A stretch of DNA of 43,209 nucleotides from the NCBI GenBank assembly GCA_049303555.1, contig JBAQNF010000025.1:1-43209 (forward strand). Direction: 5' to 3'. A program made the position numbers and the translations under genes. The notes under the pieces are model-generated. The model searched no databases and was not told where the DNA came from. It saw only the letters and a program-made list of their open reading frames with translations. Shown here piece after piece: positions 31,138 to 39,679 of this stretch; position 1 is the first letter of the stretch; each line of letters starts with the position of its first letter. The stretch comes from Candidatus Moraniibacteriota bacterium (lineage in GTDB: Bacteria > Patescibacteriota > Minisyncoccia > Moranbacterales > UBA1568).

Positions 31138-31971
31138 ATGGCGCTTTTGTACGGCAAACCAATTGCAGAGAGAATCCTTTCAGACGTGAAGGATCGTATT
31201 GAAGGTATGGATACCGCGCCAGGACTGGCGGTGGTGCTGGTCGGTGACTCTGTCGAGTCACACAAGTATGTCGGGTTGAAAGAAGAACGCGCGGGGGAAG
31301 TAGGGATTCATTTTGAGAAGTATCTTTTTCCCAAGGAGGTAGACTGCCAAGAAATATTCCGATGCATCGAGATGCTCAATACCAAGAGTGATATCCATGG
31401 CATCATCGTGCAGCTGCCGCTTCCGGAGGGTTTTCCGACGGATGAGATTATCGCTCACATTGATCCGAAGAAAGATACAGATGGATTTCACGCGGATACG
31501 ATTCGGAAGTTTCTGGCGGGGGATTTTTCCTGTTGTCCGGTGTTTCCCCGTGCTATTGTGGACCTCATCCGGGAAACGAAAGAGACTTTTCATGGTGAAA
31601 AAGCGGTGGTGGTCGCAAATTCAGACTTGATGGGGAAGGTGATGGCGTTTACACTGTCACTGGAGGGATTGGAGAGCGGTTATATCCTCAGTTCGGAAGG
31701 TCGTGAAGCGATTGCTCGAAAAACACAAGAGGCCAGAGTAGTCGTGACCGCCTGTGGTATTCTGGACCTTCTGACGGCTGATATGCTCTCGTCAGAGGCT
31801 ATCGTTATCGATGGTGGTACTGTCCGGGTGAACGGCAAGGTACAGGGAGATGTGAAACAGGAAGAGGTGGAAAAGAAAGTGGCGTTTCTGTCGCCAGTAC
31901 CGGGCGGTGTCGGACCGGTGACGGTAGCGACGCTGCTGGCTCGAGTGACGGATGCTGCTCTGAAAAATTAA
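31138..31971 (+). CDS. folD: bifunctional methylenetetrahydrofolate dehydrogenase/cyclohydrolase
   Basis: LAVVLVGDSVESHKYV, HGIIVQLPLP, KDTDGFH and PVPGGVGPVT motifs. Confidence 0.92.
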   Translation: MALLYGKPIAERILSDVKDRIEGMDTAPGLAVVLVGDSVESHKYVGLKEERAGEVGIHFEKYLFPKEVDCQEIFRCIEMLNTKSDIHGIIVQLPLPEGFPTDEIIAHIDPKKDTDGFHADTIRKFLAGDFSCCPVFPRAIVDLIRETKETFHGEKAVVVANSDLMGKVMAFTLSLEGLESGYILSSEGREAIARKTQEARVVVTACGILDLLTADMLSSEAIVIDGGTVRVNGKVQGDVKQEEVEKKVAFLSPVPGGVGPVTVATLLARVTDAALKN

Positions 31972-32000
31972 AAATATCAAGGTCTGACCTTGATATTTTT
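31972..32000. terminator. bidirectional intrinsic terminator between folD and tRNA-Leu
   Basis: AAATATCAAGG-TCTGA-CCTTGATATTT hairpin, flanked by an A-run on the 5' side and a T-run on the 3' side. Confidence 0.8.
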
Positions 32001-34270: not shown

Positions 34271-34326
34271 GTGTGTTTTGACTCCCGTGTTTTGTCTGGA
34301 TTTTGTGCTTTGAAACTTGTGTCTTG
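34271..34326 (+). repeat. TG-rich heptads upstream of the LamG gene
   Basis: GTGTTTT recurs at a 14-nt spacing, followed by GATTTTG TGCTTTG AAACTTG TGTCTTG (TTG ends at 34305, 34312, 34319 and 34326), then 8 nt and ATG at 34335. The reverse complement resembles the array at 33127-33150. Confidence 0.7.
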
Positions 34327-34334
34327 AAGAGAGT

Positions 34335-37300
34335 ATGTCTTACGACGTTACCAAATCGAGAATCTTCCAGTGGCTTGGTATCATCCTGATACTGGCTGTT
34401 TTTGCTGGTGCCTACTGGTACTTCAAAGTGTACGGGAGCACGCTCAACGCTCCGCAGAATGACCTCAACACCAATGGCCTGGTCGGCCTCTGGTCGTTCA
34501 ATGGGGATGATATCAGTGGTGTCACCGCCTACGACCGGAGTGGCCAGGGGAACAATGGTACCCTCACGAGTGGCCCGACTGCGACGCAGGGCAAAGTAGG
34601 TCAGGCGCTGTCATTTGATGGAGCAGACGACAGCGTTTCGATCACGGGAGATATTATTGGGACGGGGGCCGATTCAGTCTGTGCCTGGGTGTACCCTCGT
34701 TCCGTAGGAGAAAACAGTTACGGACGTATTTTGTCAGGGGCTATTGAGAAATTTATTTTCATTATAGATTTTTCTTCTAAATTTGCTCTTCTCTCAGATG
34801 GAAGTACTGCTATTTATAGCCCTACCATTTCGTTGAATCGTTGGACTTTTGCCTGTGCCACGAGGGACGCAGCGGGAGCGGGAGTGATTTATATGGATGG
34901 TGTGGCAGTTTCTTCGGGGAGTACTGGTACGCCAGCTTCTAATGGCGCGACAACCTATATTGGGAATCGATCTACAGGAGACCGTACTTTTGATGGTTCT
35001 ATCGACGAAGTGCGTATTTATAATCGTGCTTTATCAGCTGGCGAAATCCAGTCCCTCTATACCCAGGGCAGCGGCACCAAAGTCGACTCGGCTGTTTCGC
35101 AACCTCAGGGCACCGGCCGGCTCGACAGTGGCCTGGCTGGCTACTGGAAGCTCGATGATGGCAGTGGCACCAGTATTACCAATAGCGCTACGATTGGCGG
35201 AACGACGTCTCTGACGGGAACTCCGAGCTGGACTACGGGCCAAATTGGCAGTGCCGTGGATTTTGATGGAGTGGACGATACGGCAGCTGTCACCTACAAT
35301 ACGGCGTTTACTTCATCCAATGCTCTTACCTATTCATTTTGGGCCAAACCAGATTTAAATGAAGGGAATGGAATTTTAGGATCGCTCAATGGTGAAAATG
35401 GATCAGCTTACAATTTTATTATCATAGACAATAATGGAGCGCAGTTGGGAACCCCACTCATTTCACTTCTAAGAAATATTGGGGGTACGGCTACCCGATC
35501 AGTCCAATTTACGTACCCTGTCAGCACCTGGTTTCACTATACTTATACATATGATGGTGCCAATGAACGAGTGTATATCAATGGGGCACAGGCTGGAGAG
35601 TGGGCCCAGACAGGCAGTTTCGCTTCTAATACGGAATATGGTTTAGTTTTTGGAAGAGCCCACACGACAGCAATACAGTACTATGATGGAGCTTTGGATG
35701 AGGTACGGATGTACAATCGCCCTCTTTCGTCTGACGAAGTTTCACAGCTTTACCGTCTCACTGCTCCCACATCGGTCGACACCGGTCTCAAAGGCTACTG
35801 GAGCTTCAATGGCAAAGATGTTTCCGGAACCACTGCTTACGACCGCTCTGGCGCCGGCAATACTGGCACTCTGACCAACGGCCCAACGGTGACGGATGGC
35901 AAGGTGGGGCAGGCGCTCAGTTTCGACGGGGCGGATGATTATGTAAATATACCTGATTCAACCGCACTCGATATCGGCGACACAGACGACCTGACTCTCA
36001 CCGGGTGGTTTTATCGGGATACCTCTACTACCGAGGATACTATCGTTGCCAAGCGCAATGGTCTGACATCGCCTTATGTCGGCTACATCGCCTATCTTGA
36101 CGCTGCTAACGACGAACTGACTTTTGAAGTTTCCGATGGCGTCGACGAATATTCCCTTACTTCGGTCTCAACCTTCACGACTACTGGCTGGCATCAGTAT
36201 GCCATCGTGTGGGATCAGGCCTCGGCAACCAATTCCGACATATACATTGACGGAGTAGCGAATGGCGCCACTGATACCGGCACGATCGGGAATATCGGTG
36301 ACCTCTCGAATGCCCTTGTCTTGGCCCAAGGAGCAGAATCAGACGCTAACAACCCGTTCGATGGTAGGCTGGATGAATTTCGCTTCTACAATCGCGCTCT
36401 TACTGCCACGGAAATCCAGTCCCTCTACGCCTTAGGAGGTGGCACCAAGGTAAACAGCAGCATCTCCCAAAATCAGGGCACGGGCCGGATCGACTCGGGC
36501 CTCGCTGGATACTGGGCGATGGATGAGGGGAGCGGCACCAGTGCCACTGATGCTTCAACAAACGGCAACACCGGCACCCTCACCAATGGACCGACATGGA
36601 CGACGGGACAGGTAGGCGGCGCAGTGACATTTGACGGGACAGACGATTACATTGACGTTGGAACAGCCGGGCTTACCAGTCCTACGAAATTAAGTGGAGC
36701 AGCTTGGATTAAAATTGATGATGTAGTTTTCGCAGAGTCTTATAACTTTTTTTCCAACCGTTCGGCCAGTAATCATGGCTGGACATTTGGAACGAGCGGT
36801 GGGGCTGCTAATTGTAGTGGAGTAGATTGTGATATGTTGAGGTTTACCATTCAGGGTGTGGCATCATACTCCACGACAGATAGGTTGATCATCGAAGGGC
36901 AATGGACTCATGTGGCCTTTACATGGAATGGCTCTTCCGTTTCGCTTTATGTTAATGGCAGGGTAGTGCAAACATTCAGTACGGGTTCTATGATCACTGG
37001 TTCTAACCTTCTTTTGGGTGTTCAGGGTCCATCACCCGGAGTAGCGGGGATGTTCATGGATGGGCTCATTGATGAAGCGCGGATCTATGATCGCGCTCTC
37101 TCGGCGGATGAAGTAGAACAACTCTACCTCCTCACCGCTCCCACCGGGGTAGATACCGGGCTCAAAGGCTACTGGAGCTTCAATGGTAAAGATGTCAGTG
37201 GTACGACCGCCTATGACCGCTCTGGCGTCGGCAACACTGGCACTCTGACCAACGGCCCCGCCATCACCGAAGGCCAGCTCGGCCAGGCGCTTAACTTTGA

Positions 37301-37832
37301 TGGGACGGATGACTATGTCGATGCTGGGGATATCGCTTCCGCTGACGGTGGCACGGCACTGACCTATGCCGCGTGGGTCTATCAGGATAGTCTTGCCGTG
37401 AATAAAGCTATAACTGCCAAGTGGACATACCAGACTCAGGGTAGTTGGGCTATTCAAACTGATTTTACAACCAATACCAAGCTTCAGGTTTTCATACCAA
37501 CCAGTCTCACGGATAGTGGCAGTGGAGCCAGCGCCACCACGCCAACCAGTTCCTGGTCAGCTGGCGTATGGCATCACGTGGTTTTTATTTATGATGGCAG
37601 TCAGGGAACTGATACGAATCGACTGCAAGTATATATCGATGGGATTTCACAGACGCTCACATTCGTTGGAACTATGCCTACGTCTATGCAGGCATCTACA
37701 GCTGCAGTGAAAATTGGACAGTTTGGGGGTACGTTGAATCGTCCTTGGAATGGCAAGATTGACGAAGTTCGCATCTACAACCGAGCCCTCACCGCCGCCG
37801 AAATCGCCGCCCTCTATAACTCCTCCCGCTAA
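34335..37832 (+). CDS. membrane-anchored protein with five LamG (concanavalin A-like lectin, Laminin_G_3-type) domains
   Basis: N-terminal TM WLGIILILAVFAGAYWYF. There are five modules. Each opens with GL(V/A/K)G(L/Y)W.(F/L/M).(G/E).. and ..G(Q/S/G)A(L/V).FDG.DD. Each closes with (I/L)DE(V/F/A)R(I/M/F)Y(N/D)R(A/P)L(S/T)..E(I/V)..LY. Confidence 0.85.
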   Translation: MSYDVTKSRIFQWLGIILILAVFAGAYWYFKVYGSTLNAPQNDLNTNGLVGLWSFNGDDISGVTAYDRSGQGNNGTLTSGPTATQGKVGQALSFDGADDSVSITGDIIGTGADSVCAWVYPRSVGENSYGRILSGAIEKFIFIIDFSSKFALLSDGSTAIYSPTISLNRWTFACATRDAAGAGVIYMDGVAVSSGSTGTPASNGATTYIGNRSTGDRTFDGSIDEVRIYNRALSAGEIQSLYTQGSGTKVDSAVSQPQGTGRLDSGLAGYWKLDDGSGTSITNSATIGGTTSLTGTPSWTTGQIGSAVDFDGVDDTAAVTYNTAFTSSNALTYSFWAKPDLNEGNGILGSLNGENGSAYNFIIIDNNGAQLGTPLISLLRNIGGTATRSVQFTYPVSTWFHYTYTYDGANERVYINGAQAGEWAQTGSFASNTEYGLVFGRAHTTAIQYYDGALDEVRMYNRPLSSDEVSQLYRLTAPTSVDTGLKGYWSFNGKDVSGTTAYDRSGAGNTGTLTNGPTVTDGKVGQALSFDGADDYVNIPDSTALDIGDTDDLTLTGWFYRDTSTTEDTIVAKRNGLTSPYVGYIAYLDAANDELTFEVSDGVDEYSLTSVSTFTTTGWHQYAIVWDQASATNSDIYIDGVANGATDTGTIGNIGDLSNALVLAQGAESDANNPFDGRLDEFRFYNRALTATEIQSLYALGGGTKVNSSISQNQGTGRIDSGLAGYWAMDEGSGTSATDASTNGNTGTLTNGPTWTTGQVGGAVTFDGTDDYIDVGTAGLTSPTKLSGAAWIKIDDVVFAESYNFFSNRSASNHGWTFGTSGGAANCSGVDCDMLRFTIQGVASYSTTDRLIIEGQWTHVAFTWNGSSVSLYVNGRVVQTFSTGSMITGSNLLLGVQGPSPGVAGMFMDGLIDEARIYDRALSADEVEQLYLLTAPTGVDTGLKGYWSFNGKDVSGTTAYDRSGVGNTGTLTNGPAITEGQLGQALNFDGTDDYVDAGDIASADGGTALTYAAWVYQDSLAVNKAITAKWTYQTQGSWAIQTDFTTNTKLQVFIPTSLTDSGSGASATTPTSSWSAGVWHHVVFIYDGSQGTDTNRLQVYIDGISQTLTFVGTMPTSMQASTAAVKIGQFGGTLNRPWNGKIDEVRIYNRALTAAEIAALYNSSR

Positions 37833-37844
37833 ATATCTCTCCAA

Positions 37845-37875
37845 CAAGCCAATATACAGCGGTTCAACCCCTGTA
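37845..37875 (+). repeat. REP-like hairpin, left copy
   Basis: The core TACAGCGG-TTCAA-CCCCTGTA forms an 8-position stem with one C-C mismatch. Confidence 0.9.
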
Positions 37876-37885
37876 AGATACTCAT

Positions 37886-38533
37886 ATGTCAACGAGAAAA
37901 ACACCACTGGTGACAGGGGAAATCTATCACGTTTACAATCGTGGCGTAGACAAAAGAAGTATCGTTGGAGATGAATTCGACAGCGAAAGGTTTTTGAAGA
38001 GTATGGTTGCTTTTAATACCGGGTGTCCGGTATTGAGTCTACGTAACGCTGAACTCATCTACAGCGGTTCAACCCCTGTAGATCCTTTGGTGGAAGTTAT
38101 CGCTTATTGCTTAAATCCCAATCATTTTCATCTGATTCTACGGCAGACAGTGGACGGCGGTGTGAGTGAATTTATGAAGCGATTGTCGGGAGGATACACG
38201 TGGTATTTCAATAACAAATATGAACGAAGTGGAAGTTTGTTTCAAGGAAGATATAAATCGGTGCATGTTGATACTAATGAGTATCTTCTTCAGCTGAGTG
38301 TTTATGTTACGCTGAATTTTCGTGCGCATGACTATGAGAGTTCGATTGATATGAATTTGATTCGTTCGAGTTGGGATGAGTATTCCCGAAAAATCAAACG
38401 ACCTTTTTGTAAAAAAGATGAGATACTTGGGCAATTTCGAAATAAAAAAGAGTATGTTAGATTTGCTGAACAAACAATTATAGGAATTCGAGGAAGAAAA
38501 GTATTGGGTCAAGAGCTTGGTTCAATCGAATAG
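37886..38533 (+). CDS. REP-associated tyrosine transposase / IS200-like Y1 (HUH) transposase family protein
   Basis: YHVYNRG, the AYCLNPNHFHLIL HUH motif, and YFNNKYERSGSLFQGRYKS are typical of COG1943/PF01797 RayT-like proteins. Confidence 0.85.
   Translation: MSTRKTPLVTGEIYHVYNRGVDKRSIVGDEFDSERFLKSMVAFNTGCPVLSLRNAELIYSGSTPVDPLVEVIAYCLNPNHFHLILRQTVDGGVSEFMKRLSGGYTWYFNNKYERSGSLFQGRYKSVHVDTNEYLLQLSVYVTLNFRAHDYESSIDMNLIRSSWDEYSRKIKRPFCKKDEILGQFRNKKEYVRFAEQTIIGIRGRKVLGQELGSIE
38060..38080 (+). repeat. REP-like hairpin, internal copy inside the RAYT CDS
   Basis: TACAGCGGTTCAACCCCTGTA is identical to the core of the left copy, is in the same orientation, and encodes YSGSTPV in frame. Confidence 0.9.
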
Positions 38534-38536
38534 TTC

Positions 38537-38567
38537 TACAGGGGTTGAACCGCTGTATATTGGCTTG
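38537..38567 (-). repeat. REP-like hairpin, right (inverted) copy
   Basis: Exact reverse complement of 37845-37875. It ends 11 nt before the convergent manC stop. Confidence 0.9.
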
Positions 38568-38578
38568 GAACAGCCACT

Positions 38579-39679
38579 CTAGAGGAGGTCTTGGCGGCCG
38601 GTTTCTTTCAGTGTTTCCACGAGTTTTTTGATATCTCCTGAGACGCGGTCACGGCGCGCAACGAGCAGCGCATCTGGTGTGTCGATGATAATCAGATCTT
38701 CGACACCGATCGTAGCGATGAGACGTTTTTCGCCATGAACCAAGAGGTGACTGCTCCCGATATCGATATGTGTACCCGAAACAACGGAATCCGTTTCAGA
38801 TTTTTCGTGGAGAAATTCATAGAGTGTTTCCCAGTTGCCGACATCACTCCAACGAAGTGCGCTGGGAACGACCAGGCGCTTGTCGGATGAAAGCTTTTCG
38901 ACGATGAGCGGCTCGATCGGTACACTCTCTGTTTTTTCATAGAGTGCGGTGAGCGTGTCCATATCGAACGCATCTCCATTTTTTGCTGCGGCGATTTCAT
39001 CCATCACTTCATGAAGCGCTGGTGCAAATTCTTGTGTCCATTCAGAAAAAGTTTGGACAGAAAAAATAAAGTAACCGGCATTCCAGAGATAGTCAAAGCT
39101 GCGGAGGTAGACCTCGGCTGTTGCTCGGTCCGGTTTTTCTTTGAAGGTATCGACAGTGAAAACACGCTTCTCTTCAATAGTGGCAAATTCTTGTCCCATC
39201 TTGATATACCCCAGTCCGGTATCGGGCTTGGTGGGGTTGATGCCGATGGTGACCAGCTTGTCCGGATAGGTGGCTACCACGGAGAGCGCGGCATGGATGG
39301 TGGCACTAAATTCATCGGGATTTTCGATAGCGTGATCTGATGCGATGGTGGCGACGATGGCCTCTGGATCGAGCATCCGGATGGTCGTAGACACGAGTGC
39401 GATAGCGGGAGCGGTATTTCTCGCCTGTGGCTCAACGATGATGTTTTCTGGCTTTATTTGAGGGATTTTTTCGAGAACAAGGTCTCGGTATTGTTCGGTG
39501 GTTGAGACAAAAATATGGTCTTCGGAGACGATATTTTTCACCCGGTCGTAGGTCTCTTCAATCATGGTTTTCGAAGAGACAAATGACTGAAATTGTTTGG
39601 GTTTTTCTTGTCGGGAAAGTGGCCACAAACGGGTGCCGGAACCGCCCGCCATGATGACGATGTACGCGTGTGATGACAT
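38579..39679 (-). CDS. manC: mannose-1-phosphate guanylyltransferase (nucleotidyltransferase domain only)
   Basis: IVIMAGGSGTRLWPLSRQEKPKQF signature; 366 aa with no C-terminal isomerase/cupin extension. Confidence 0.85.
   Translation of the reverse strand: MSSHAYIVIMAGGSGTRLWPLSRQEKPKQFQSFVSSKTMIEETYDRVKNIVSEDHIFVSTTEQYRDLVLEKIPQIKPENIIVEPQARNTAPAIALVSTTIRMLDPEAIVATIASDHAIENPDEFSATIHAALSVVATYPDKLVTIGINPTKPDTGLGYIKMGQEFATIEEKRVFTVDTFKEKPDRATAEVYLRSFDYLWNAGYFIFSVQTFSEWTQEFAPALHEVMDEIAAAKNGDAFDMDTLTALYEKTESVPIEPLIVEKLSSDKRLVVPSALRWSDVGNWETLYEFLHEKSETDSVVSGTHIDIGSSHLLVHGEKRLIATIGVEDLIIIDTPDALLVARRDRVSGDIKKLVETLKETGRQDLL

Follow-up and report, generated by a model that had tools for sequence, protein, structure and literature searches.

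What is the palindrome that brackets a gene of the Y1 HUH (histidine–hydrophobic residue–histidine) class doing inside the reading frame of that same gene? The question is raised by the segment 37845–38567 of contig JBAQNF010000025.1 from a Candidatus Moraniibacteriota bacterium, which was analyzed at its full length of 43,209 nt (hereafter the window; positions refer to it unless a locus is named). An earlier note on this DNA, made from the sequence alone, had described a gene for a REP-associated tyrosine transposase (RAYT) between two inverted hairpins of the repetitive extragenic palindrome (REP) type, with a third copy of the hairpin core in the coding region. Our answer, to which we assign a probability of roughly 0.6, is that the locus is a REPtron-like, nearly self-contained hairpin module of a Y1 HUH (RAYT-like) family specific to the Candidate Phyla Radiation (CPR)/Patescibacteria.

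Palindromic copies in the window

The unit is delimited by a perfect 31-nt inverted repeat, whose arms, at 37845–37875 (+) and 38537–38567 (–) just as the earlier note had it, are 100% complementary and lie 661 nt apart. The 21-nt core, TACAGCGGTTCAACCCCTGTA, is present in exactly three copies, at 37855–37875 (+), 38060–38080 (+) and 38537–38557 (–). No further matches with up to three mismatches were found in the other approximately 42.5 kb of the window, and the core had no match in 100 dinucleotide-preserving shuffles. The middle copy, identical to the upstream one, is in frame in the open reading frame (ORF) 37886–38533 (+), which encodes the 215-aa Y1 HUH protein (RAYT-like, TnpAY1 class-2-like), and reads YSGSTPV between the YHVYNRG segment (aa 14–20) and the NHFH motif (aa 79–82), so that both the identity of this copy and its placement in the protein were correctly described.

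The upstream core has the structure TACAG-CGGTT-C-AACCC-CTGTA with one C·C mismatch. Taken with its flanks, the intragenic hairpin (38057–38083, +; ATCTACAGCGGTTCAACCCCTGTAGAT) has a 12-bp stem, also with one C·C mismatch, and encodes I-Y-S-G-S-T-P-V-D. Folded as single-stranded DNA (ssDNA), the three copies yield –3.8, –6.8 and –6.2 kcal/mol (z = –2.3, –4.3 and –3.5). The downstream hairpin begins 3 nt past the stop codon.

A family with four hairpin stations

An indexed search identified 2,885 homologous proteins, and an exhaustive search, 207 clusters at 50% identity with E ≤ 1e-30. Record titles that name a taxonomic group all name Patescibacteria/CPR, except for a few automatically titled metagenome-assembled genomes (MAGs), and the 85 homologous loci all come from CPR/Patescibacteria MAGs. 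The sample comprised 79 homologous loci from species-representative genomes and eight loci from six close relatives (75–85% identical).

Nearly every locus carries its own palindrome of approximately 23 nt (about 21–25 nt) at fixed stations, four at most: in the promoter, upstream of the ATG (station 1, "up"); at nucleotides ~175–200 of the gene, codons ~59–66 (station 2, "s1"); at nucleotides ~440–500, codons ~150–160 (station 3, "s2"); and at the stop codon (station 4, "down"). Out of 80 loci, the upstream station is filled in 65, s1 in 55, in the same frame, and s2 in 46, and 78 downstream hairpins were counted over these loci; all four stations are filled in 23 loci, and the pattern of the window, up + s1 + down, is found in 18. 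In the window, stations 1 and 4 are the left and right arms of the inverted repeat, station 2 is the intragenic hairpin, and station 3 is a decayed remnant at 38327–38365 (+), which encodes HDYESSIDMNLIR. The internal copy, for which the earlier note had considered a tolerated REP insertion, is therefore not specific to this lineage but a regular feature of the family, and a second intragenic station has decayed in the window.

The locus L084 (80% identical to the window protein) has four copies of the exact window core, the C·C mismatch included. Since its s2, HSYSGSTPVDLIR, keeps the exact 21-nt core in a segment colinear with the decayed one of the window and equally long, the window has lost one of two ancestral intragenic hairpins.

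All 79 intragenic hairpins (79/79), at both stations, are centered on codon position 2 in one frame of the L-G-G-x-T-A-K type, in which codons 1–3 are the reverse complement of codons 5–7, e.g., CTT GGC GGT nnn ACC GCC AAG = L-G-G-x-T-A-K. In an alignment of 28 members a recurrent "x-S/G-G-x-T-A/P-x" segment is accordingly seen where the window has YSGSTPV. As the other two reading frames of the hairpins are likewise stop-free, the frame bias reflects either tolerance for the small residues of that frame or common descent.

Some members deviate from the common pattern. L082 and L085–L087, which share the manC context of the window, have lost s1, which reads HDDVAPED or HDDSVPED; upstream of the gene (locus position ~1050–1111 in L082) a rearranged remnant (..CCGCTGTATATAGGCTCGAACAAGGCTATATACCG..) replaces the intact hairpin, and the downstream hairpin is intact and perfect (TACAGCGGTTTAACCGCTGTA). 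Inverted doublets resembling REPINs (REP doublets forming hairpins), with 19–27-bp stems, are observed in L034 (VSGSTAKALAVEPLT, gene offset 184–231, wholly within the coding sequence), L061 (gene offset 620–659, near the C-terminus, and –89..–48), L002 (–44..–11 and 660–699) and L062 (671–728). Two distant members, seen as proteins only, have other palindrome-encoded peptides at these stations, in part repeated: in P0170, CKGPTFA (TGCAAAGGTCCGACCTTTGCA-type) occurs singly at s1 and in duplicate at s2, and in P0148, GVPTAK is found both at s2 and at the C-terminal end.

Maintenance of the palindrome as nucleic acid

Over the 79 intragenic hairpins the 12-bp stem is 89% paired, and 11 of its 12 pairs have changes on both sides. 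Compensatory cells number 168, compared to 48.9 ± 5.4 in shuffles, and in slid registers of the stem pairing falls to 23–46%. Only seven cells are of the G-U type, and G-U makes up 5 of 26 mismatches in the inner stem, which is not above chance; as the hairpins were detected by Watson–Crick pairing, the pair counts are biased upwards and the G-U counts downwards.

When the same peptides are re-encoded with the codon usage of the family, 5.57 ± 0.15 of 12 pairs are formed, versus 10.59 observed. Because synonymous re-encoding halves the pairing, the peptide fails to explain the palindrome. The intragenic peptides vary as the reverse-complementary codons dictate (LGGRTPK, LRSLASK, NGHPVSI, CGGPTAT and others). 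The comparison of homologs, which the earlier note had proposed as a check, thus shows that what is kept is the palindrome and not the peptide: it is maintained at the nucleic-acid level, and codon choice makes it. This covariation is more readily reconciled with a DNA palindrome than with an RNA helix.

Concerted evolution of the copies

Copies within one locus are shown to evolve in concert. Over 17 nt, stations of the same locus are 0.96 nt apart (median 0), while the same station in the nearest relative (mean protein identity 69%) is 3.25 nt away; the within-locus distance is the smaller one in 45 loci, with the opposite seen in six (p = 6e-8). Moreover, imperfect palindromes are shared whole among stations, in either orientation, in the window, L084, L029 and L079.

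Loops with a hairpin are ~4 aa longer than loops without it at s1, and not longer at s2 (0 aa), in the subset with locatable anchors. Simple insertion, from which loops longer by ~8 aa would be expected, is disfavoured by these lengths. The near equality of loops with and without a hairpin favours loss by in-place decay and, for the upkeep of the hairpins, replacement or conversion over repeated simple insertion.

Two further regularities were considered and rejected. The inverted arrangement of the flanking copies, seen in the window, is ruled out as a family rule: among asymmetric hairpins, 21 flanking pairs are direct and 21 inverted. Shuffling of modules at the hairpins was suggested by alignment breaks at aa ~65 and ~145; these proved to reflect variable loops and, in distant relatives, another C-terminal domain, for which ordinary domain boundaries are a sufficient explanation.

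Promoter and stop-codon copies

The end of the upstream hairpin is separated from the ATG by 11–14 nt in most of 57 loci, with a TAnAAT box directly after the hairpin. A –10 hexamer ending 5–8 nt (mostly 6 nt) before the ATG is present in 59 of 82 loci; the hairpin foot (...AAGTG) supplies a TG at –15/–14 in 40 of these 59, and the 5′ arm (...CTTGG) supplies a TTG spaced by exactly 17 nt in 28. Of 57 upstream hairpins, 32 have behind them a –10 box that matches in at least 5 of 6 positions, compared to 2–6 of 45–60 hairpins at five control positions (past the downstream copy, antisense from that copy, outwards of the upstream copy, and on the two sides of s1), and antisense or outward promoters at the other hairpin copies are found at the background level only. 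The positions of these predicted elements show the upstream copy to be embedded in what would be the gene's own promoter. In the window, the final two bases of the upstream hairpin also belong to the –10-like hexamer TAAGAT (37874–37879, +), after which come ACTCAT (6 nt) and the ATG. As the –10 box is followed by 6 nt and then by the ATG, this spacing suggests a leaderless or near-leaderless transcript. Among the stations, the upstream copy is the one in a likely regulatory position, forming the promoter.

In most loci, the start of the downstream hairpin falls at –5 to +9 nt relative to the stop codon; G-rich sequence comes next. The earlier note had supposed that the hairpins could act as terminators; there is no T-run after the downstream hairpins in the family and no terminator-like site (stem + T-run) in the window, and an intrinsic terminator role is unsupported.

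The encoded protein

Pfam Y1_Tnp (PF01797) matches the protein at E = 2.9e-8, over aa 69–141 only. H80 and H82 of the HuH motif NHFH (38120–38131, +), and Y140 and N144 of the catalytic Tyr motif (YVxLN; YVTLN in the window, 38303–38317, +), are invariant among the 28 aligned members, and LFQG (38237–38248, +) and SSW, part of SSWDEY (38366–38383, +) in the C-terminal helical tail, are invariant or nearly so. The Tyr motif of the family is YV[TN]LN followed by F, D, N, W, Y or E, and never by P. The best structural match of the AlphaFold2 model (predicted local distance difference test, pLDDT, 78.7; predicted template modelling score, pTM, 0.82) is 4ER8, the E. coli RAYT–REP complex (E = 1e-4), with ISDra2 and IS608 TnpA next; the matches ranked 2–30 are IS200/IS605-type HUH structures. 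The link to 4ER8 is one of fold comparison only, as a PDB sequence search with the family profile yielded nothing at E ≤ 0.01. Given the Y1_Tnp match, the invariant His, Tyr and Asn residues and the structural matches, the protein therefore has the catalytic equipment of a Y1 HUH nuclease/transferase. The assignment of the gene to RAYTs in the earlier note stands as far as the Y1 HUH class and the best-matching fold are concerned, and does not extend to the curated RAYT model, considered below.

In the model, s1 forms a predicted loop between the helix 52–58 and the strand 69–77, and s2, a predicted loop at aa 148–156; both belong to non-regular, lower-confidence segments. No helix-turn-helix (HTH) or DnaA_C-like domain was detected by Pfam in the C-terminal tail. 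Distant relatives (P0233, P0241, P0249, P0251, P0253, P0216, P0223) align only up to aa ~145–150 and carry, besides the canonical RAYT class-2 motif Y[IV]HLNP, another C-terminal domain (..YRWSS..), and because of this the tail and the proline loss of the CPR family look derived.

Dispersed hairpins and genomic context

Outside the gene ±80 nt, 20 cognate-like hairpins were found in 1.13 Mb of the relatives' flanks, of which seven lie at a distance of over 1 kb, or approximately one in every 150 kb. The dispersed population of the core that the earlier note had proposed to look for is thus absent from the window and amounts to those approximately 20 copies in the flanks. Most of them are intergenic, with the CAC...GTG foot that the flanking copies also have. 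In two cases the hairpin lies in frame within an essential gene, with the same L-G-x-x-T-x-K frame: L068 1598–1618 is in the NAD-dependent DNA ligase gene ligA (...KELGSSTPKRE..., immediately before the KxDG adenylation motif), and L066 18613–18635, in the gene for the YchF ATPase (...LQLGNETSKL...); solved LigA and YchF homologs have gaps at the hairpin positions. Since both intergenic copies and in-frame copies in LigA and YchF exist, the hairpin can be copied to new sites; it thus resembles a REP in behaving as a mobile or copyable element, but one with a very low copy number. A metagenome scan with ACAGCGGTTSAACCSCTGT returned 28 contigs, three of them with a homolog of the gene; the contig of the window itself was not recovered, and many of the other contigs are high-GC, with the match in ORFs of no relation to the gene, as chance could produce in such a collection for a pattern of 17 bases.

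Paralogs within one genome are 50–76% identical and have different hairpins. The LamG/manC context is common to the window and its 80%-identical relatives (L082/L085–87), and close homologs (75–85% identical) differ in their downstream neighbours. No conserved neighbourhood was found in 85 loci, save for a LamG-domain gene upstream in 10 of them. Because of the divergent paralogs with different hairpins, the stable LamG/manC context and the lack of a conserved neighbourhood otherwise, the gene is best read as a resident one, of a domesticated type, and not as an active insertion sequence (IS).

The paralog pairs observed are L005/L017, L049/L050, L025/L048, L038/L039 and L019/L064, each paralog with its own hairpin. 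The hairpins of L005 (GGCGGT/ACCGCC) and L017 (GGGGGT/ACCCCC) are one compensatory pair apart and constitute a natural specificity pair. The LamG (Laminin_G_3) gene, ending in ...DEVRIYNRALSAAEI.ALYN.GR, adjoins the RAYT-like gene upstream at 39–305 nt in the window, L004, L021, L022, L048, L074, L080, L081, L082 and L084, that is, in 10 of 85 loci, and is present in all relatives of the window clade whose contig reaches there. This adjacency could be a conserved linkage, a target preference, or a consequence of LamG abundance in CPR genomes.

The neighbours in the window are a protein with five Laminin_G_3 domains (34317–37832, +) and a convergent manC-like gene (NTP_transferase/ManC). The stop codon of the former (37830–37832) lies 12 nt before the unit, not 13 nt as had been given, and that of the latter (38579–38581), 11 nt after it, as had been given. 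Two other hairpins were seen in the window. A small one, TTAATACCGGGTGTCCGGTATTGA (38013–38036), in the gene just upstream of s1, has a 9-bp stem with one mismatch and a 4-nt loop, and encodes FNTGCPVL; its sequence is unrelated to the REP-like core. A perfect palindrome with a 15-bp stem, AAAAATATCAAGGTCTGACCTTGATATTTTT (31970–32000), has A and T runs on either side, resembles a bidirectional terminator and has no relation to the hairpin module.

Comparison with known systems

REPtrons (RAYT/TnpA-REP; Nunvar 2010, PMC2817692; Ton-Hoang 2012, PMC3333891; Messing 2012, 4ER8; Corneloup 2021, PMC8266576) share with the studied family the Y1 HUH fold with a single Tyr, the bracketing of the gene by a cognate palindromic hairpin, the co-evolution of enzyme and hairpin, and a low number of gene copies, the paralogs being divergent and each having a hairpin of its own. 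TnpA-REP is known to cleave and recombine cognate single-stranded REPs and to co-evolve with them (PMC8266576). Unlike in REPtrons, no abundant dispersed REPs are seen in the window and the 1.13 Mb of flanks, there is no conserved 5′ GT[AG]G guide before the hairpin, the score with the NCBIfam model REP_Tyr_transpos is 21.8 against a cut-off of 80, the Tyr motif is YV.LN[FDN] and not Y---NP, and the stations are fixed, including the promoter and two coding loops. As it falls short of the curated model, lacks Y---NP and the GT[AG]G guide, and shows no abundance of dispersed REPs in the DNA covered, we consider the CPR family RAYT-like in its probable mode of action and do not file it as a RAYT member. 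The REP/RAYT organisation proposed earlier is borne out by the palindromic hairpin that the gene has on both sides, and fails in the dispersed REP population, which is not seen in the window and the flanks, and in the inverted arms, which are not the family rule. The GTAG tetranucleotide, to which the earlier note had drawn attention, is indeed present at two of the three window copies; it stands on the 3′ side, partly within the stem, and the relatives have CTGTAA, CTGTGG, CTGTTG or AAGTG(G) instead, so that a GTAG guide is not conserved and the match is coincidental.

TnpAY1 proteins have been split into 12 subclasses (Quentin, Siguier, Chandler and Fichant, 2018, PMC6006769), and in-frame REPs inside tnpA-REP genes were reported in subclass 2.4 (Bertels group 4; Cyanobacteria, Bacteroidetes; PMC6006769, Fig. 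S10), hence the internal copy as such is not as unusual as had been thought. Similar to our family, subclass 2.4 has a cognate REP in its own gene, in addition to the flanking REPs, with the frame kept and in a peripheral loop, and an HuH motif of the NH[IFV]H type. On the contrary, the hairpins studied here lie before the HuH motif (aa 59–66 vs 79–82) and after the Y140 helix (~150–160), the WQ and YIxNNP motifs of subclass 2.4 are replaced by LFQG and YVxLN, its REPs are long or have a "double foot" GT[AG]G, and its hosts belong to other phyla.

The closest subclass by motif signature is 2.1/TIRYT (Di Nocera 2013, PMC3733652; Quentin 2018, Table 1), a resemblance taken from published motif tables, not from phylogenetic placement. 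Common features are NH[YF]H, FQ (LFQG here) instead of the W motif, a Tyr motif of the Y[IV]xLN type, an "SS" motif in the tail (SSW here), a longer C-terminal tail, and flanks that in the window are true 31-nt terminal inverted repeats (TIRs). The differences are that subclass 2.1 is reported to lack REP-like hairpins and to have TIRs with GGGGWSAS, which is absent from the window TIR (CAAGCCAATATACAGCGGTTCAACCCCTGTA), that the Tyr motif here has no P, and that no HTH domain was detected here by Pfam, while subclass 2.1 proteins have HTH-like C-terminal domains (PMC6006769).

With IS200/IS605 elements (IS608, ISDra2 TnpA) the family shares the HUH/Y1 fold, the small size of the unit and hairpins beside both gene ends. 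In IS200 the upstream hairpin overlaps expression signals, as the upstream hairpin does here. Unlike these elements, the family has Y---N (N144 at the Q position) instead of Y---Q, no tnpB, no near-identical multicopy spread, and near-perfect palindromes that are also found inside the gene.

In-frame palindromes such as Rickettsia palindromic elements (RPEs) and intragenic GTAG/CGTC REPs provide a further parallel, as they also are short palindromes tolerated in surface loops; intragenic REPs are known from many genes, including those for DNA ligase and other replication and repair proteins (Di Nocera 2013, PMC3733652). They differ in that here it is the putative mobilising enzyme that carries the main stable targets, two of its own loops, with a single frame in use throughout and a very low copy number in the family.

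Proposed mechanism and alternative explanations

By analogy with REPs for TnpA-REP and end hairpins for IS200/IS605 TnpA, the palindrome would be the ssDNA substrate and binding site of the encoded enzyme, as the fold and the arrangement suggest. At the promoter station, the 5′ arm would provide the TTG of the –35 element and the 3′ foot, the TG of the extended –10, and binding of the enzyme to this copy may result in negative autoregulation. The enzyme would act preferentially in cis, and its cleave-and-rejoin activity may copy or replace hairpins among the stations, possibly helped by hairpin-templated strand switching during replication. The intragenic copies would then persist as tolerated passengers, as their single frame encodes small, flexible residues in two loops.

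Several points weigh against this reading. We infer the action of the enzyme on the hairpins from fold and arrangement only. HUH cleave-and-join activity by itself predicts deletions and inversions and not clean replacement, which makes the homogenising step the weakest one; it could be independent of the enzyme and proceed by replication template switching or short-tract gene conversion. The NCBIfam model NF047646 (REP_Tyr_transpos) gives 21.8 bits versus a cut-off of 80 (E = 1.4e-4) and matches aa 69–149 only, the class-2 signature Y---NP is without its proline in the family, and the 5′ GT[AG]G guide is not conserved. The promoter signal of the window is weak (TAAGAT has 4 of 6 matches, without TG and without TTG), and a generic promoter scan of the window called no promoter at the upstream hairpin. 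The dispersal counts cover only the window and 1.13 Mb of flanks, and the detection bias affects the pair counts. Of the outcomes that the earlier note itself had named as contrary to a REP/RAYT unit, namely a hairpin confined to this locus, a peptide conserved without the palindrome, and a missing catalytic Tyr, none is fully seen: a few dispersed copies exist in the relatives, the palindrome is kept, and Y140 is present and invariant in 28 homologs.

A bolder version of the same explanation would make the enzyme's own locus its principal or only substrate, the four stations being a closed circuit in which the enzyme regulates the leaderless promoter and rewrites the hairpins in and around its gene, or excises or inverts the gene segments between them. 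We hold this to be possible, though unlikely. If true, the intragenic hairpins would be functional and not passengers, and the result would be a self-referential HUH system of a kind not described for RAYTs.

According to the main rival reading, which we consider doubtful, the intragenic hairpins owe their persistence to selection for a distinct role, being acted on by the enzyme or by the replication or transcription machinery, e.g., in programmed excision or inversion (of the N-terminal module, the catalytic core or the C-terminal tail), as a roadblock or "fuse", or as backup templates for the promoter and terminal copies. The occupation of the same two stations in the same frame across proteins 45–55% identical, stems of 15–21 bp inside the coding sequence of L015, L003, L035 and L026, and the inverted doublets inside the coding sequences of L034 and L061 all agree with such a function. 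However, about a third of the loci have lost each intragenic hairpin by in-place decay with the gene intact, the window being without s2 and L082 and L085–87 without s1, and no truncated or rearranged hairpin-to-hairpin variants were identified among the loci. Also in its favour, the hairpins bracket the catalytic core exactly, and the alignments of distant relatives break at aa ~65 and ~145–150, but these breaks coincide with ordinary loop and domain boundaries, and the in-frame copies in LigA and YchF demonstrate that passengers are possible.

The palindrome might also be a double-stranded operator for a dimeric protein, possibly bound by the helical tail of the enzyme, with the other copies as by-products of gene conversion from the one in the promoter. 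The upstream copy spans the –35 to extended –10 region, its conserved outer bases (CTTGG ... CCAAGTG) match promoter elements, and the strict Watson–Crick symmetry with almost no G-U suits DNA over RNA. For an operator, however, 10–20 positions that are all symmetric, with compensatory drift in the inner ones, are abnormal; the clade of the window lacks the TTG and TG elements, yet keeps the palindrome; and although the subclass 2.1 proteins have HTH-like C-terminal domains (PMC6006769), none was detected in the tail here. As an operator would also leave unexplained the stop-codon copy and the in-frame copies elsewhere, we regard it as improbable.

A further alternative is a role of the hairpins in RNA, be it mRNA stability, RNase III processing or translation. 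The s1, s2 and stop-proximal copies would all be transcribed, and REPs downstream of genes are known mRNA stabilisers (PMC3733652), but the upstream copy, which co-evolves with the others, would be outside the transcript if the promoter has been read correctly. Sequence identity from copy to copy is not needed for RNA structure, G-U pairs are no commoner than expected among the inner-stem mismatches, and a search of 37600–38800 gave no Rfam match, and no T-run terminator was detected. An RNA role is thus quite improbable.

That the unit of ~720 bp is an autonomous IS200-like insertion sequence ending at the flanking hairpins is very unlikely. Hairpins bracket it closely (one ending ~13 nt upstream of the ATG, the other starting 0–5 nt past the stop), its contexts vary without conserved synteny except for LamG, close homologs have different downstream neighbours, and some genomes have two copies. 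Those copies, however, are the divergent paralogs with different hairpins, with no sign of recent transposition; in L082/L085–87 the unit stayed put between LamG and manC at 80% protein identity; the Tyr motif is Y---N and not the IS200 Y---Q (PMC6006769), and there is no tnpB; and the flanking hairpins have no fixed relative orientation.

Finally, a functional peptide YSGSTPV/LGGxTAK with incidental palindromy, or a recent one-off REP insertion in the window genome, can be dismissed: the motif does recur in the protein alignment, the earlier note gave the segment as longer than in other RAYTs, and the Pfam match begins only at aa 69, but the peptides follow the reverse-complementary codons and lose half of the pairing when re-encoded, the same sequence occurs in non-coding flanks, s1 is filled in most loci, and segment length barely changes.

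Significance

What is new in the REPtron-like module described here is the four-station hairpin arrangement of the CPR family; in-frame REPs within RAYT genes were already known, in another subclass and at another position. In the literature searched, we found no description of the CPR family or of its four-station arrangement.

The host role of RAYTs and the way in which REPs are copied are open questions, and the classical systems, with hundreds of REPs genome-wide, are hard to dissect. The module studied here is a minimal system, with one small enzyme, one palindrome and four positions within about 720 bp, and natural variation over hundreds of lineages pairs each enzyme with its own hairpin sequence. 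Recognition specificity (with the co-varying pairs), cis-action, autoregulation through the promoter hairpin and the homogenisation of short palindromes are testable in it.

The intragenic stations, moreover, neatly exemplify how the structure of a nucleic acid can dictate the sequence of a protein, as pairs of amino acids covary via reverse-complementary codons; annotation and evolutionary-rate analyses would misread this covariation as a conserved peptide motif. The CPR four-station family extends REP-like biology to the reduced genomes of the CPR.

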